Assembly (NCBI GenBank): GCA_003282175.1
Contig: QBZX01000002.1
Location: forward strand, 138,598-202,597
DNA: 64,000 bases
Reading direction: 5' to 3'
Source of the DNA: Pelagibacteraceae bacterium AG-337-G06
GTDB taxonomy: Bacteria; Pseudomonadota; Alphaproteobacteria; Pelagibacterales; AG-422-B15
Shown: one piece after another, positions 45,647 to 58,558 of the stretch
Layout of the letters: each line of letters starts with the position of its first letter
Position numbering within the stretch: the first letter of the stretch is position 1
Notes under the pieces: generated by a model
Seen by the model: only the letters and a program-made list of their open reading frames with translations
Told to the model about the DNA's origin: nothing
Database searches by the model: none
Translations under genes and position numbers: made by a program

Positions 45647-46348
45647 TTATTGTTCTTTCACCGAGACATTTTTCATATCTATAACTCTATCAAAGTTAGA
45701 GCTTAAAGATTTATCATGAGAAACCATTAATAAGGTTGAATTGCTATTTGCAACTTGAGAGAACATTAAATCCAGAAATATATTTTGCGCGTCTGTATCC
45801 AAAGAGGATGTAGGCTCATCTGCAATGACCAATGGAGGATTTCCAATTAATGCTCGTGCAACAGCAACTCTCTGTTGTTGACCAACGCTCAATTCACTTG
45901 CTTTCATATTAACAATGTCTTCAGGCAAACGTAAAGATTGACAAATGCTAATCGCTGTTTCTCTTTGATCGCTGACGTTTGCTGACCTTAATTTTGAAAA
46001 ATAAAGTGGCAACAAAATATTATCAATGACATTTGCATACGGCAGTAAATTAAATTGCTGAAATATAATCCCAATGTTATCAGATCTATATTGATCTCTT
46101 TTTGTTGCTGATAAGTCATTAATCAGCTTTTCATTCAATTGAATTTTGCCTGAAAGGGGAGTTAAAAATCCACAGATAAGTGAGAGCAGGGTTGTTTTAC
46201 CTGAACCACTCTCGCCCAAAAGCAATACTTTTTCTCCTTTGTCGATTGAGAGCTCAGGAATATGAAGTTTAAATTTGCTTTTATTTGACCAATGAAACTT
46301 TACAGAATTAATTTGTATCGTTTTTTCATTCAAATTAGATTTTTCCAT
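45647..46348 (-). CDS. ABC ATPase (ZrgB-like)
   Basis: GESGSGKTT, IFQQFNLLPY, LSVGQQQRVA, ADEPTSSLD. Confidence 0.92.
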   Translation of the reverse strand: MEKSNLNEKTIQINSVKFHWSNKSKFKLHIPELSIDKGEKVLLLGESGSGKTTLLSLICGFLTPLSGKIQLNEKLINDLSATKRDQYRSDNIGIIFQQFNLLPYANVIDNILLPLYFSKLRSANVSDQRETAISICQSLRLPEDIVNMKASELSVGQQQRVAVARALIGNPPLVIADEPTSSLDTDAQNIFLDLMFSQVANSNSTLLMVSHDKSLSSNFDRVIDMKNVSVKEQ

Positions 46349-46946
46349 CTGTGTTAATTAAAGGCTCATCTCCTTCTACCTCAAAGCTAGTAGACCCCAT
46401 ATTTGAGATAAACTGAACCTCTAACTCACCAGAATTTGTGAAAGTAGCAAAATAAGGAAAATTTACCTCTTTAATGGCGTTTATGTTGCCGCATTCAAAT
46501 GAATATTTTGCATAAAACTCATTATGATTTTCTTCAGCATGCTCATCATGGTCATCGTGTTCATCATGGTCATCGTGTTCATCATGGTCATCGTGTTCAT
46601 CATGGTCATCGTGCTCATCATGCTCATCTTCTTCCTTTAAAGCAACTTTCTGACCGTTTAATTCGCAAAGACTATTACTTGGTAGAGTGAATATATTTGT
46701 GTAATCATCAAATGTTTTCAAAGCTTGATTAATTTTAGCAATATCTTCATCACTTTTTGCAACATATTCAAAACCTACAATATCGGCTCCAGGTATCATA
46801 AATTCAAACTCAATTGTCGATCCTTCAACGGCAATATTTAACTCACCCACGCCATGTTCATGCTTATCAACCTGTCTCGTCTCTTCAGCACTGATTGTAA
46901 AAGTCATTAAATTAAATGAGATTAATATATAGATTATGTATTTCAT
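46335..46946 (-). CDS. zrgA: Periplasmic zinc-binding protein ZrgA (DUF2796)
   Basis: Signal peptide; HEHGVGELNIA, PGADIVGFE, His/Asp-rich loop, YSFEC. Confidence 0.88.
   Translation of the reverse strand: MKYIIYILISFNLMTFTISAEETRQVDKHEHGVGELNIAVEGSTIEFEFMIPGADIVGFEYVAKSDEDIAKINQALKTFDDYTNIFTLPSNSLCELNGQKVALKEEDEHDEHDDHDEHDDHDEHDDHDEHDDHDEHAEENHNEFYAKYSFECGNINAIKEVNFPYFATFTNSGELEVQFISNMGSTSFEVEGDEPLINTDGKI
46543..46614. repeat. 4 x 18-bp tandem repeat encoding HDDHDE in ZrgA
   Basis: TCATCATGGTCATCGTGT x3 plus one copy ending in C. Confidence 0.95.
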
Positions 46947-49076: not shown

Positions 49077-50192
49077 ATGAAATTACAACTTAAATTTGGA
49101 TTAATCTTATCAACTATTTCACTATTAACGTTTATTTCTTTCGCAAAAGCTGAAACAAAAGTTGTAGCATCAATTAAGCCGATACATTCATTAATTAGCT
49201 ATGTAATGGATGGAGTAGGAACGCCTGGCTTATTAGTAGATGGCAGTTCTTCACCACATACTTTTCAATTGAAGCCTTCCCACGCAACAATGCTTCAAGA
49301 AGCAGATATTGTGTTCTGGATTGGCGAGGACTTGGAGTCATTTCTAGAGACACCTCTTGAGTCAATTGCAAAAGATGCAAAGCAAGTAACATTGATGGAA
49401 TCAGAAGATATTGAAATGCTCAAATTTAGGGAAAAAAATGTATTTGATGATCATGACGATCATGGTGATGAACATGATGACCATGACGAGCACGGTGATG
49501 AACATGACGAGCACGAAGAACATGGTGACGAGCATGACGAGCACGAAGAACATGGTGACGAGCATGACGAACATGACGAACACGAAGAACATGGTGACGA
49601 GCATGACGAACACGAAGAACATGGTGACGAACATGACGAGCACGGTGATGAACATGACGAGCACGCACATCATGATGGTCATAACCATGGTGAATTTGAT
49701 ATTCACTTTTGGCTAGATCCTGAAATTGCAAAGACTATTGTTCAAATAGCAGCAAAAGAAATGTCAGAAATTGATCCTGCAAATGCATCAAAATATGAAG
49801 CAAATGCAGCTAAAGCTCTGAATGAACTTGATCAACTTATAAATGATACAAGAGGCAAGATAAATAAAGATGCCACTTATGTTGTATTCCATGATGCTTA
49901 TCAATATTTTGAGCAACGTTTTGGAATCGAAGTAATCGGCGCACTCACAGTAAATCCTGAAGTATTGCCAGGTGCAAAGCAGCTTGCTGAAATTAGAGAG
50001 GTCATTGAACACGAGGTCGTTAACTGCCTATTCTCTGAGCCTCAGTTTAATCCAACGATTGCTGAAACAATTGCTAGTGACACAGGCGTGAAGGCTGCAG
50101 TTCTTGATCCGTTAGGAGCTGAACTAGAGCCTGGAAAAGATCTGTATTTTGATCTTATAAGCGATATGGCATCATCATTTGAAAGTTGTTAG
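49077..50192 (+). CDS. znuA: Zinc ABC substrate-binding protein with long His-rich loop
   Basis: SIKPIH, SPHTFQLKPS, HFWLDP, FHDAYQYFE, EPQF, LDPLG. Confidence 0.96.
   Translation: MKLQLKFGLILSTISLLTFISFAKAETKVVASIKPIHSLISYVMDGVGTPGLLVDGSSSPHTFQLKPSHATMLQEADIVFWIGEDLESFLETPLESIAKDAKQVTLMESEDIEMLKFREKNVFDDHDDHGDEHDDHDEHGDEHDEHEEHGDEHDEHEEHGDEHDEHDEHEEHGDEHDEHEEHGDEHDEHGDEHDEHAHHDGHNHGEFDIHFWLDPEIAKTIVQIAAKEMSEIDPANASKYEANAAKALNELDQLINDTRGKINKDATYVVFHDAYQYFEQRFGIEVIGALTVNPEVLPGAKQLAEIREVIEHEVVNCLFSEPQFNPTIAETIASDTGVKAAVLDPLGAELEPGKDLYFDLISDMASSFESC
49446..49688 (+). repeat. Imperfect tandem repeats (9/12/30-bp units) encoding the (E/D)H-rich loop of ZnuA
   Basis: Unit EHEEHGDEHD (GAGCACGAAGAACATGGTGACGAGCATGAC) repeated with variants; 26 His by my count. 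Confidence 0.95.
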
Positions 50193-54911: not shown

Positions 54912-55268
54912 ATGCATATTCTAACAAATCCACTTCGAGTAATCTTCTTTTTTTATTTATTTTTTCTTTACTATTCATATGTGCGACCGGTTGATCCTAC
55001 GGTTAGTAGTGTTGCTGCTGTTGTATCAGATAATACTGTACATTTTGTTGCATTTTTTATTTTAGGAGCACTTGCACAATTAGCGAATAATAAATCAAAT
55101 GATTTTGTTTTTGGCATTAGCCTAGCTTTGATTACAAGTATCTTTATTGAGTTTGTTCATTTCTTTATTCCATTTCGAGATTTTCAAATCATAGAAGGCG
55201 TTTTTAATGTACTTGGTTGTTTGTCAGCGATATATTTAATAAACTATTATAGAAAAAATTATGGATAA
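54912..55268 (+). CDS. VanZ-like membrane protein
   Basis: D..VHFVAFFILG, IEFVH.FIPFRDF. Confidence 0.75.
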   Translation: MHILTNPLRVIFFFYLFFLYYSYVRPVDPTVSSVAAVVSDNTVHFVAFFILGALAQLANNKSNDFVFGISLALITSIFIEFVHFFIPFRDFQIIEGVFNVLGCLSAIYLINYYRKNYG

Positions 55269-55629
55269 GCTCATTATTAGAAATATTTGTCAACCCCCTG
55301 ACAGCAATCCCTACGGTACAGCACATGGGGCTTGGGTAGTTAAACAGATGGCTCACGCAGGAATTTACATGACTCAGTTGGTATCAAAGGGCAATGCAGT
55401 ACTTGTTGAGTCAAAAGTTAAATACAAAAACCCAATGCACGTTGGTAAATTTATTAATGTTTATGGATCTGTCTTAGGTGTAAAGCAATCCAAAATGATT
55501 TTTAAAATTACCGCAAGAAGATCTGAAATGAATCAAAAGGAAGTTGATGTGGCAGTGGGGGAATTTTCATACATTGCAATCAATGATAAAAATAAGACAA
55601 GAAAATTTAAACCTAATCTAAAGATATAA
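55261..55629 (+). CDS. HotDog-fold acyl-CoA thioesterase (YciA-like)
   Basis: QPPDSNPYGTAHGAWVVKQM, PMHVG, VG.FSYIAI. Confidence 0.75.
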   Translation: MDKLIIRNICQPPDSNPYGTAHGAWVVKQMAHAGIYMTQLVSKGNAVLVESKVKYKNPMHVGKFINVYGSVLGVKQSKMIFKITARRSEMNQKEVDVAVGEFSYIAINDKNKTRKFKPNLKI

Positions 55630-55658
55630 AAATAAGCCCCCATTAACTTGGGGGCTTA
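55628..55658 (-). terminator. Rho-independent terminator oriented for a minus-strand transcript
   Basis: TAAGCCCCC-ATTAACTT-GGGGGCTTA hairpin; A-run at 55628-55632 gives the U-tract on the minus strand. Confidence 0.85.
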
Positions 55659-55664
55659 CTGTAG

Positions 55665-55763
55665 TTAAAACGGAGCTCCACTCAAAAAGTGGAGGTTTCC
55701 ATATCTACAATCACATGGAATCTCACTACTCGAGCAAAGCTCCTCTATACTACTGATAGACAT
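55665..55763 (-). CDS. Candidate 32-aa small protein (or structured ncRNA)
   Basis: MSISSIEELCSSSEIPCDCRYGNLHFLSGAPF; extended SD 6 nt upstream and terminator 6 nt downstream. Confidence 0.55.
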   Translation of the reverse strand: MSISSIEELCSSSEIPCDCRYGNLHFLSGAPF

Positions 55764-55764
55764 A

Positions 55765-55778
55765 GACCACCTCCTTTC
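55765..55778 (-). promoter_or_regulatory. Extended Shine-Dalgarno sequence
   Basis: GAAAGGAGGTGGTC pairs over 14 nt (one G-U) with the typical 16S 3' end GAUCACCUCCUUUC. Confidence 0.75.
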
Positions 55779-55848
55779 ATTAAATATGGTTTAAAATATA
55801 GATATATATATAATTTACTGGATTCTTATTTCAATCAAGGAGTTTATT

Positions 55849-56286
55849 ATGTCGCCTGAATTAATTTTTGAGCCTGTCATCAATATGTTATGGCTTTCTT
55901 TAGCGGTATTTGCCTTTGGGACCACACTGAGGCTTAAATCCATTATTATTGATAAAAAAAGCAAAGAAGAAGACTTCAAAATTCCCACATTTGATAATGG
56001 TGGTGAAACTATTCAAAACAGTCAGAGGAATCTGACCAATTTATTTGAATTCCCAATCTTTTTCTATGCTGTGTGTATCATGATCTATGTAACAGGTAAT
56101 GTTGATGCTTATTTTGTGCTGTTGGCCACTTGGTTCTTTTGGTTACGAGTTGCGCATACGGTTACGCACATTTTTTATAATAAAGTGATTCCTGGGATTG
56201 CAATTCCTGTGAGGACTCTATTTTGGCTACCATCAACCATCATTCTTGGTTGGATGGCTTATAGAGCTTGCTCTGTCATGATGTGA
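55849..56286 (+). CDS. MAPEG-family membrane protein 1
   Basis: QRNLTNLFEFPIFFY, WFFWLRVAHTVTHI; AAGGAG RBS. Confidence 0.82.
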   Translation: MSPELIFEPVINMLWLSLAVFAFGTTLRLKSIIIDKKSKEEDFKIPTFDNGGETIQNSQRNLTNLFEFPIFFYAVCIMIYVTGNVDAYFVLLATWFFWLRVAHTVTHIFYNKVIPGIAIPVRTLFWLPSTIILGWMAYRACSVMM

Positions 56287-56699
56287 TGTTTGAAAACATT
56301 CTTTTCCCAACTTTTGGATTAATTGTATTAACATTTGCGGTGGGCTTATTGCATACCATTGCCTCTGTTGATTTAACAAGGAAATCTAAAGAGTGGGAAG
56401 AGAGTGGTATTCCTAGGGAGCCCTATGAGGACGCTCCACTAAAACTAAGATTGTTAAAAAATAATATTAGCAATTTGTTTGAATTCACCATTATTTTTTA
56501 TTTCTTAGTTGGTATTATAATTATTCTTGATCTATCGAACACTTTTTTAATAATTTGTGCATGGCTATACTTTTTATTAAGAGTTATCCATTCTGTATGG
56601 CATATATATTTTATAAATACGTCAGTCAGAGGAAGCTTGTGGCTATTCTCTCAAATAATTTTATTTATTTTCTTTTTAGGAACGGTTATTAGTATCTAA
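56286..56699 (+). CDS. MAPEG-family membrane protein 2
   Basis: NNISNLFEFTIIFY, WLYFLLRVIHSVWHI; TGATG coupling. Confidence 0.8.
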   Translation: MFENILFPTFGLIVLTFAVGLLHTIASVDLTRKSKEWEESGIPREPYEDAPLKLRLLKNNISNLFEFTIIFYFLVGIIIILDLSNTFLIICAWLYFLLRVIHSVWHIYFINTSVRGSLWLFSQIILFIFFLGTVISI

Positions 56700-57147: not shown

Positions 57148-57858
57148 ATGTTAAATTTTGGCTATATTCCAGTCTTTGCCCTAAGATTTATGGTTTTCTA
57201 TTTTATTGTTACAAATGCGATAGCCATGGCATTGTTTCCTGGGGGAACTCTGTTTAACCCTCAACTTGAAATATACTCATTTTCTGAAAATTTTTTTAGT
57301 GACTTGGGAATCACGTTTACGAAAGATGGAACGCAAAACTATCTTTCAAGTTTTTTATTTAACAGTTCTCTATTGGTATTAGGGCTATGTGCAGTAACAC
57401 ACATTTTCGTCCCAAAATTATTTAAAGATAACAAAAAAAGTTATGTTCTCTCAATCATTGCAGCAGCATTATTTGTTATAGCGGGACTATCTTTTATTGG
57501 GGTAGGATTGACACCTGCTGACATTTACTTCGAAGAGCATGTTTGGTTTGTTATTTTTGCATTTAATGCACAAACAATGGGTGTTCTATTCATGACTATC
57601 GCTTTTTTACTTAGCAAGATCAGCAATAAATATACAATTGTTGCTTTTATCTATTTTATAAATGTCGCTCTGTACACAATCTTTGAAACAAGTGAACCTC
57701 CACCAGATTTTAATCCTTTTGAGTTAGAAAATGTTGGTGACTTTATTGATTACAATCGTTTTATCATTTCTGTGGTTTGGCAAAAAATTATCACTCTAAT
57801 ATCAATGGTAAGCATATTAATTTTTACATTTGGATATAGACGTTTGATAAATGACTAA
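57148..57858 (+). CDS. DUF998-like membrane protein, paralog 1
   Basis: FPGG..YSFSENFFSDLG, GVGLTPAD.Y.EEH, QK. Confidence 0.75.
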   Translation: MLNFGYIPVFALRFMVFYFIVTNAIAMALFPGGTLFNPQLEIYSFSENFFSDLGITFTKDGTQNYLSSFLFNSSLLVLGLCAVTHIFVPKLFKDNKKSYVLSIIAAALFVIAGLSFIGVGLTPADIYFEEHVWFVIFAFNAQTMGVLFMTIAFLLSKISNKYTIVAFIYFINVALYTIFETSEPPPDFNPFELENVGDFIDYNRFIISVVWQKIITLISMVSILIFTFGYRRLIND

Positions 57859-58558
57859 ATTCTGGTGTGTAGATGTTCTTCGGATTGCTTCCGTTTATTA
57901 TGTAATAGCCGTTGTTATTGCAATGCTGCTCTACCCTGGAGGAAACCATATAGAGCTTGATCAAGTTGGCTATTCTCTTCATAAAAACTTCTTAAGCGAA
58001 CTTGGTTTTCATAAAACAATGTCTGGAGATCTTAATTTCTTTTCATCTTTTTTTTGGAATACAGCCATGTATATGCTTTTACTTCAGGGTGTAGCATTTT
58101 TATTTATTCCAAAGCTATTTAGAGACAATAAAGCTTCATTTATTTTTGCTTGTTTAGGAACATTATTTATGTTCCCTGCATGTATATTTTTTGTTGGGGT
58201 TGCCTTAACTCCAGGAGATATTTATTTTGATGCACATATATTCACAACGACTGCAGCATTTAATCTTTATACCGTAGCAATCTTTTTTTATATTTTTGCT
58301 TTCATATTTAGCCCACTGTCTAATTTTTATGCATCAGGTGGGATTTTACTGTTTGTTGCAGTAGGCATTTATTCTTATTATCTTGGTGATTTTCAACCTA
58401 TAGATGCATTAAATGATCGCGTTCGATTTCTTGAAGTTTATACAATGGATTTTTTAATATTTAATGTAGTACTTCAGAAAGTTATGATAACTCTAATGAT
58501 TACAACAATAATTATATTTACTTTTGGACTCAACAAACTCATCAAGGACGGTCAATAA
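57851..58558 (+). CDS. DUF998-like membrane protein, paralog 2
   Basis: YPGGN..GYSLHKNFLSELG, GVALTPGD.Y.DAH, QK. Confidence 0.75.
   Translation: MTKFWCVDVLRIASVYYVIAVVIAMLLYPGGNHIELDQVGYSLHKNFLSELGFHKTMSGDLNFFSSFFWNTAMYMLLLQGVAFLFIPKLFRDNKASFIFACLGTLFMFPACIFFVGVALTPGDIYFDAHIFTTTAAFNLYTVAIFFYIFAFIFSPLSNFYASGGILLFVAVGIYSYYLGDFQPIDALNDRVRFLEVYTMDFLIFNVVLQKVMITLMITTIIIFTFGLNKLIKDGQ

Follow-up and report, generated by a model that had tools for sequence, protein, structure and literature searches.

A spacer between a thioesterase gene and the first of two MAPEG genes in Pelagibacteraceae bacterium AG-337-G06 (SAR11) carries on its minus strand a real, independently transcribed and lineage-specific gene, whose main constraint lies at the RNA level; we regard this much as settled. 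The gene, hereafter the element, is part of a stretch of 64,000 nucleotides (nt) of contig QBZX01000002.1, which is referred to as the window and in whose coordinates positions are given. Its transcript is about 160-175 nt long, starts 7-25 nt 5' of a Shine-Dalgarno (SD) sequence, and ends at its own intrinsic terminator. The element is an undescribed RNA gene that resembles dual-function RNAs such as AzuCR in kind, and its unusual traits are a 14-nt SD, the pairing of the two halves of its open reading frame (ORF) with each other, and an arm of this pairing that is frozen in sequence. An initial annotation of this DNA had offered an abundant small protein, a ribosome-sequestering or dual-function RNA, and a type I toxin-like module as explanations, and among these the dual-function RNA fits best: our proposal that it works as a translated riboregulator, and hence as a dual-function RNA, we place at about even odds.

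Transcription of the element is seen directly in environmental RNA. Its k-mers occur in many metatranscriptomes, and contigs from about ten RNA runs, belonging to several studies, cover it. The RNA-run contigs begin at 55649-55653, within the terminator hairpin, and in runs X1 and X2 this end is fused to the Illumina universal adapter; opposite ends with the index adapter were found at 55786 (X10, X13 and X14), 55790 (X9) and 55776 (X13), and contigs of X7 and X8 end at 55801 and 55803, respectively. All seven adapter junctions have a single orientation, with read 1 on the plus strand, which under the usual dUTP chemistry indicates a minus-strand RNA with its 5' end at 55785-55803. Because contigs from four DNA metagenomes cross both end points uninterrupted, the contig ends are a property of the RNA and not an assembly artefact. 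In X10, the element contig had a depth of 49.8, compared with 8.2 for MAPEG and 2.7-10.7 for the other listed contigs of the 20-kb neighbourhood; in X7, the element was nearly the sole assembled item in that neighbourhood; and in three of four runs its contig depth was at or near the top. The separate minus-strand transcription unit that had been proposed is thereby borne out, as an independent short transcript with ends of its own, such as is expected of a dual-function small RNA (sRNA). The parts that bear on transcription, together with the neighbouring genes, are as follows.

55261-55629, plus strand: thioesterase gene, convergent neighbour on the downstream side of the element
55626..55660, minus strand: intrinsic terminator with a 12-bp stem, a 6-nt loop and a U-run (hairpin 55660-55631, then TTTATATCTT)
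55785..55803, minus strand: zone of RNA 5' ends, with the main end at 55785/6 and others at 55790, 55776 and 55801-55803
55807..55812, minus strand: -10-like hexamer TATATA within the conserved block ATTATATA, putative promoter element
55829..55834, minus strand: -35-like hexamer TTGAAA (TTGATA, TAGAAA or TAGATA in other clades), putative promoter element
55849-56286, plus strand: first MAPEG gene, divergent neighbour on the upstream side of the element

The two hexamers, noted earlier as promoter-like, stand 16 nt apart, and -35-like hexamers with TATATA or TATATT equivalents recur at the same spacing in all clades, as would suit a promoter; the site was left unlisted by a consensus promoter scan because its second hexamer ends in A. 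TATATA predicts a transcription start near 55800, in agreement with the contig ends of X7 and X8. A 5' end at about that position had been anticipated and does occur, but the most frequent end is 55785/6. At the other end of the transcript, the GC hairpin with its U-tract has the make-up of an intrinsic terminator, 6 of its 12 pairs being G-C, and functions as such on the minus strand only, as the initial annotation had stated. Its stem covaries, with AU exchanged for GC (27 versus 25 sequences) and CG for UA.

The terminator loop (55642-55649) occurs in two orientations. The window and copy L002 read GCCCCC-AAGTTAAT-GGGGGC and all other copies GCCCCC-ATTAACTT-GGGGGC, the loop ATTAACTT being the exact reverse complement of AAGTTAAT and also the dominant form in DNA metagenomes; the flip reads as a hairpin-loop inversion polymorphism. 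The element was also contained in X3-X6, oligo-dT-selected seawater 'transcriptomic' libraries, which is unexpected for a bacterial RNA; priming at internal A-rich sites, or carry-over owing to very high abundance of the RNA, may be the cause.

Homologues of the element were collected from three sources. A search with the thioesterase gene led to 36 single-cell or metagenome-assembled genomes, all Pelagibacteraceae (SAR11), and the element was present in 36 of 36. An outward walk via thioesterase homologues of 57-80% identity reached loci with the same element in the same spacer (216-232 nt), and a metagenome pattern scan, in which only the peptide GNLHF[LM]SGAP was fixed and synonymous positions were free, returned 52 loci, comprising 51 genuine ones and one unrelated G+C-rich match. 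In total, 92 complete copies with 52 unique sequences were obtained. In all 83 loci that reach both neighbours the context was the same: the MAPEG gene lies upstream and diverges from the element, and the thioesterase gene lies downstream and converges on it. The other loci are truncated by contig ends. The window holds one copy, and a covariance-model search of it gave no second. Look-ups of thioesterase and MAPEG homologues for more distant relatives returned only clades already sampled, and viral contigs searched for the element gave no match. The element is single-copy per genome, vertically inherited and lineage-specific.

Conservation of the element greatly exceeds that of its surroundings. 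The body from SD to stop (119 nt) is 96-100% identical to that of the window, while the flanking SDR, VanZ-like, thioesterase and MAPEG genes show 70-83% DNA identity; in copies L032 and L033 the body is 100% identical, with 80% for thioesterase and 77% for MAPEG. Invariant across clades are TGAAAGGAGGTG[G/A]TC(N)ATGTCTA, TAGTA, GG.GC, TGGAAACCT[C/T]CACTTT[T/A]TGAGTGGAGCTCCG and TAA. Homologues and metatranscriptomes had been named at the outset as the checks that would bear on the proposed unit, and both came out in its favour, with SD, ORF and stems kept among the copies.

A further diverged variant was seen in reads or contigs of X9, X13, X14, X26 and X42 (window 55739-55780). It has only the SD and the first codons in common with the element, its loose end translates as ...EEPTTFAGLPNH..., it rejoins the window near 55622, and it falls outside what the GNLHF[LM]SGAP pattern captures.

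The SD and the ORF are the parts that point to the ribosome.

55765..55778, minus strand: 14-nt SD, GAAAGGAGGTGGTC in the window and GAAAGGAGGTG[G/A]TC across clades, complementary to the 16S 3' tail
55665..55763, minus strand: 32-codon ORF encoding MSISSIEELCSSSEIPCDCRYGNLHFLSGAPF, with TAA at 55667-55665; 33 codons in several clades; stretches of the product include YGNLHFLSGAPF and MSISSIEELCSSSEIPCDCR, the clade-C equivalent being ...NHVDIGNLHFMSGAPN

With the canonical 16S 3' tail, the sequence of which we take from general knowledge since the window has no rRNA gene, the SD forms 11 contiguous Watson-Crick pairs, or 14 pairs including one G.U, and the maximum upstream of 78 long ORFs of the window is 7 pairs (8 with G.U). 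The claim that this SD is exceptional therefore stands. It is invariant in the 52 unique sequences save for one G/A position, and as G and A both pair with the opposite rRNA U, the SD pairing is kept either way. The SD, the spacer, the AUG and the second codon are invariant, a single T separates GAAAGGAGGTGGTC from the ATG (55763-55761), and the AUG lies 6 nt from the GGAGG core, so that the start codon and 32-amino-acid (aa) ORF of the initial annotation are present where it had placed them. The motif AAAGGAGGTG occurs once in 64 kb, which is not significant alone, as at least one match was found in 13 of 100 shuffles. We consider it likely that ribosomes initiate on the element. An upstream ATG also lies immediately 5' of the SD (55778-55780; likewise in L026, L059, L064 and L103-L105); clade A2 has one extra nucleotide between the SD and the main ATG, which brings the upstream ATG in frame, and gene finders then call a 39-aa form, MKGGGPMS... 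(P0068; L104 1013-1132).

The RNA downstream of the start codon is strongly folded. The minus-strand RNA folds at -66.4 kcal/mol (z = -7.6), which none of 200 shuffles equalled, and the plus strand gives z = -5.4. A single rod is formed, in which codons 4-19 are the partners of codons 20-32 together with the first nucleotides beyond the stop, and the same rod is found in seven clade representatives despite strongly differing 5' halves, with z of -4.7 to -6.7 and 0 of 200 shuffles equal. The structural parts are the following.

55661..55753, minus strand: rod-like hairpin of about 93 nt, ORF first half paired with second half
Rod helix P1: GUAGU/ACUAC (tentative), joining codons 4-5 to the final A of the stop codon and the 4 nt after it
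Rod helix P2: GGAGCUUUGCUC/GAGUGGAGCUCC
Rod helix P3: GUGAG/CUCCAC, or, in the comparison of clade representatives, GAGGU with ACCUC
Rod helix P4: UUCCAUGU/AUAUGGAA, the apical hairpin, ending in invariant UGGAA
55671..55701, minus strand: nearly invariant 3' arm of 31 nt, UGGAAACCU[C/U]CACUUU[U/A]UGAGUGGAGCUCCG, encoding GNLHF[L/M]SGAP
55667..55706, minus strand: alternative local hairpin of the 3' arm alone, AGAUAUGGA/UCCGUUUU plus CUCCACUU/GAGUGGAG, RNAalifold consensus

The forward strand was 3-15 kcal/mol more stable than its reverse complement in nine of nine cases because of its many G.U pairs. When pairs were counted on the codon-register alignment A2, with the rod of one clade as reference, 72% of cells were paired, compared with 32-52% with slid partners, and the covariation score of the rod was reached by none of 500 shuffles. 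A compensatory change is seen between GAGGUU/AACCUC in clade B and GAAGGU/ACCUUC in clade C. The initial annotation had drawn the body as GGAGCU...AGCUCC enclosing two separate hairpins. Its pairings GGAGCU/AGCUCC and UUCCAU/AUGGAA do form, but a three-way-junction body was rejected because both pair as parts of one rod, and the CCACU/AGUGG hairpin belongs only to the alternative, weaker local fold.

This local hairpin of the 3' arm, which RNAalifold favours, amounts to -12 to -16 kcal/mol compared with -34 to -43 kcal/mol for the rod, and the two are mutually exclusive. Its lower helix exchanges AU and UA at two pairs, which couples residues 20-21 (RY to DI) with residue 32 (F to N). Its upper part, CUCCACUUUUUGAGUGGAG followed by CUCCGUUUUA (55676-55694, minus strand), is a terminator-like hairpin inside the ORF directly before the stop; because the U-run is missing in clade C, it is not a conserved internal terminator, and an ArfA/BrfA-like non-stop design based on it was rejected on the same ground.

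Whether the sequence is held in place by its peptide or by its RNA decides how far the strongest alternative can be taken, namely a plain small-protein gene, in which the 32-33-aa peptide would be the sole functional product and the rod and SD would serve only mRNA stability or translation control. SD, AUG, frame and stop are kept in 52 of 52 unique sequences, with frames 1 and 2 closed in all of them; the 32- and 33-codon forms differ by in-frame 3-nt indels; five of the seven ORF substitutions in L026 are synonymous; and the ratio of nonsynonymous to synonymous differences (pN/pS) stays under 1, at 0.23-0.65, inside each of clades A, C and C2. The peptide ends are also kept, as MS(I/T)xSI at the N-terminus and GNLHF(L/M)SGAP at the C-terminus. 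Gene finders call the ORF in its clade-C and A2 forms, so that its reported absence from the list of ORFs was only partly true; both forms are in public protein collections, the clade-C form on up to 251 contigs and in NCBI under the name 'hypothetical protein'.

Against such a gene, pN/pS is about 1.5 between clades and 0.4-1.6 for residues 7-21, with no third-position excess, the variable sites being distributed over codon positions as 3/1/2, 9/10/4 and 4/8/7. The 23 unique ORF sequences encode 22 peptides, and pS is only 0.03-0.09 while neighbouring genes have diverged by 17-30%. Cysteine residues, net charge (-3 to +2) and hydropathy are not conserved among clades; a metal-binding Cys motif was rejected for this reason, as was a precursor of a ribosomally synthesized and post-translationally modified peptide, for which no modifying enzymes lie nearby and the core is unconserved. 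One copy has a premature stop. Four variants of the peptide matched no Pfam or NCBIfam family at E <= 10, phmmer against 1.84 billion representatives retrieved, besides the query peptide, only two long proteins, of 578 and 881 aa, whose matches are taken as spurious, and AlphaFold gave no confident fold (pLDDT 66, pTM 0.27). The abundant small protein of the initial annotation is thus weakened, and we consider a gene of this kind rather unlikely.

The synonymous sites of the conserved half are the most telling. Eight synonymous positions in the 3' arm were free in the search pattern, and CUC/CUU was the only variation found, even at sites in a loop or where the pairing would permit a change; this points to a sequence-specific RNA constraint beyond both coding and the rod. 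Such a frozen arm is what would be expected of a segment that pairs with two alternative partners or is recognised by another molecule. The 5' arm is free to change as long as pairing is kept, so residues 7-21 of the peptide drift. Selection acts mainly on the RNA, with the SD, the AUG and the 31-nt 3' arm fixed at almost every nucleotide. In the comparison of codon conservation with base pairing that had been suggested, RNA constraint was dominant, although covariation was modest.

The opposite extreme is a non-coding RNA that engages the ribosome: its 14-nt sequence would hold the 16S 3' tail as a decoy or anchor, whether to sequester or park 30S subunits or purely to stabilise the 5' end, and the ORF would be a by-product of self-complementarity. 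The RNA-like constraints agree with this reading. The extreme SD lies only about 7 nt from the main RNA 5' end, its duplex would end 1 nt from the AUG, and the rod starts at +11, inside the initiation footprint. Moreover, when 5' arms were randomised with pairing to the fixed 3' arm kept, the frame stayed open in 33-74% of trials, and one natural copy carries a premature stop. Nevertheless, neither the AUG nor its 6-nt distance to the GGAGG core varies, every length change preserves the reading frame, and frame 0, unlike frames 1 and 2, is never closed in the full set; stoichiometric sequestration would also demand very high copy numbers, beyond what contig depths establish. We regard a purely non-coding role as improbable.

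The preferred reading, a translated riboregulator, combines the two. A 30S subunit would dock on the extra-long SD near the 5' end, where complementarity is evident, and by binding there might protect the RNA from RNases, in the manner of the Bacillus STAB-SD. Elongation through the 5' arm would then unzip the rod, and the invariant 3' arm, once released, could refold into the local hairpin or meet a partner molecule. The ribosome would at the same time make a peptide of 32-33 aa, whose ends, MS(I)SSI... and ...GNLHF(L/M)SGAP, are fixed and whose own activity is uncertain. A more specific version is a translation-gated regulator or 16S 3'-tail decoy, in which a ribosome is parked on the 14-bp SD/anti-SD duplex and elongation frees the 31-nt arm for action in trans; the arm contains a CCUCC anti-SD-like motif, and we hold this version to be doubtful. 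If true, it would couple ribosome availability or translational status directly to regulatory output; we know of no described sRNA that acts as such a translation-gated regulator.

Several findings weigh against the riboregulator. The covariation of the rod is modest, pairs changed on both sides are not above shuffles, and helix P1, though found in all variants, is weak alone (mean z -1.7). Because random 5' arms leave the frame open so often, the open frame is in part a by-product of the hairpin and is weak evidence of translation. The premature stop mentioned above, GGA to TGA at codon 14 in L101 (1060-1268, minus strand) with the remaining RNA intact, is either a real population variant or an assembly error. 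Contig depth exaggerates expression, since k-mers of the element are common to all strains and flanking genes are split into variants. The contigs are strandless, and the strand was assigned from sequence signals, the asymmetry of the fold, and adapter orientation under the dUTP convention. Finally, a duplex scan for trans targets against the translation start regions of the window (64 kb, about 5% of a genome) gave nothing better than shuffles.

A role in cis on the neighbouring genes is a further alternative: the element might be a translation-controlled terminator that meters antisense read-through into the thioesterase and VanZ genes, a convergent transcript partnering the 3' end of the thioesterase gene, or a promoter in competition with the overlapping one of MAPEG. 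Linkage to both neighbours is strictly fixed, which proves little given the general rigidity of gene order in SAR11. A gap of 4 nt separates the stop codon from the terminator stem, so that a terminating ribosome would cover the 5' arm of the terminator. Several RNA contigs extend from 55786 through the terminator into the thioesterase gene; because contigs carry no strand, read-through and overlap with the convergent thioesterase mRNA are indistinguishable in them. The block ATTATATA, read on the plus strand, gives a perfect TATAAT (55809-55814), 35 nt 5' of the MAPEG ATG, which probably serves the divergent MAPEG gene. The promoters of the element and of MAPEG seem to overlap. A TGGTTT on the plus strand (55787-55792), 16 nt further upstream of TATAAT, coincides with the main 5' end of the element. 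Nonetheless, no co-oriented gene follows within about 740 nt and the invariant 3' arm is left unexplained, and we find a purely cis-acting element very improbable.

The lack of a co-oriented gene also led to rejection of a leader-peptide attenuator, as the convergent thioesterase gene is downstream in every locus that extends that far and the next minus-strand gene is about 740 nt away. An rRNA-derived fragment or h45 mimic was rejected for want of sufficient similarity and of any rRNA match in Rfam. The type I toxin-antitoxin-like module, to which the small ORF, highly folded mRNA and own terminator had pointed, is scarcely credible, since the peptide is not hydrophobic (best 15-residue Kyte-Doolittle mean 0.07-1.12, net charge -3 to +2, no transmembrane stretch), no plus-strand promoter and terminator pair for an antisense partner was found within the element (the contigs carrying no strand), and the gene is single-copy, vertically inherited, universal in the lineage and abundantly expressed in situ.

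Among known systems, several dual-function RNAs come closest in kind, including AzuCR (164 nt, 28 aa; PMC8915982), VcdRP (29 aa; PMC8672173) and Spot 42/SpfP (PMC8916003). Like these and SR1/SR1P, the element is transcribed on its own, from a putative promoter to an intrinsic terminator that both belong to it, as an RNA of about 160-175 nt, and it has an ORF of about 30 codons. In AzuCR, coding and base-pairing regions overlap, much as RNA constraints here overlap the coding sequence. Unlike in all four, the ORF of the element is one self-folded rod, the SD has 14 nt, and the middle of the peptide is unconserved; a base-pairing target or peptide partner was not found for it, the target scan covering the window. 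Sequence similarity of the element to the four was not found, nor was an Rfam match.

The SD itself has a parallel in STAB-SD of Bacillus thuringiensis cryIIIA, reportedly described by Agaisse and Lereclus in 1996, where 30S binding is said to shield the transcript from decay. STAB-SD reportedly has the same core, GAAAGGAGG, as a perfect complement of the 16S 3' end near the RNA 5' end. It is, however, said to have no start codon after it and to occur in a Gram-positive host, whereas the element has a correctly spaced invariant AUG. With TnaC, SpeFL, SecM and attenuators, the element shares an ORF of about 24-34 codons, whose product would roughly span the ribosome exit tunnel, conserved ends with a free middle, a stop abutting a terminator, and the possibility of alternative folds, but it differs from them in having no co-oriented downstream gene in any of the 83 loci and no regulatory amino-acid run. 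Type I toxin mRNAs (among them hok, tisB and aapA1) likewise have a small ORF within a tightly folded, stable mRNA; the peptide of the element, in contrast, is not hydrophobic, an antisense RNA is not evident, and its gene is conserved, single-copy and vertically inherited.

Rfam was scanned permissively over 2 kb and at gathering thresholds over the whole window; apart from one tRNA in the window, no family reached threshold. The best match of the element, the rimP leader (31.1 bits versus a threshold of 47), owes its score to the terminator. Neither the structured-RNA candidates reported for P. ubique (Meyer 2009, PMC2704228) nor the 30 motifs listed for SAR11 strain HIMB5 (Stav 2019, PMC6429828) include the element, and the accessible part of a Red Sea transcription start site study makes no mention of it. 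In HIMB5, sORF-1 has a preceding terminator and a modest ribosome-binding site, sORF-2 encodes a PPDT peptide, and sORF-3 is lysine-rich (PMC6429828). Of these, sORF-2 resembles the element in belonging to a SAR11 clade, in having a short ORF beside conserved hairpins, and in being flanked by genes that point toward the motif, so that it is no leader; its authors propose a trans-acting element combining sRNA and sORF (PMC6429828). It differs in its PPDT motif, compared with GNLHFxSGAP here, and in its locus and flanking genes.

No bacterial lineage is more abundant in the sea than SAR11, whose genome is minimal, whose intergenic spacers are very short and in which very few regulators are known. 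That it retains a 220-nt spacer holding an RNA conserved to a degree that we would compare with rRNA or tRNA, and that this RNA matches or exceeds the contig depth of its neighbours in several independent metatranscriptomes, makes the element a strong candidate for a core role, either regulatory or ribosome-associated. It also offers a clean natural case for separating coding from RNA constraint, as the halves of the ORF pair and one is fixed while the other drifts with pairing kept. Peptide and RNA are both short enough for synthesis, which makes the competing models directly testable.

Elsewhere in the window, two predicted proteins (46335-46946, minus strand, and 49077-50192, plus strand) contain long tandem repeats rich in His, Asp and Glu, whose periods at the DNA level are 18 and 30/69. 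Both can be read as periplasmic proteins, one of them ZnuA-like, and the intervening ORFs, to judge by their sequences, resemble ABC-transporter and Zur-like genes; the repeat number at 49454-49665 varies in RNA contigs. Near the element, the two MAPEG paralogues are in tandem (55849-56699), the second starting with TTG and overlapping the first by 19 nt, and two DUF998-like membrane proteins are likewise in tandem (within 57148-58558) with an 8-nt overlap, an Mpo1-like gene lying between the two pairs on the other strand.

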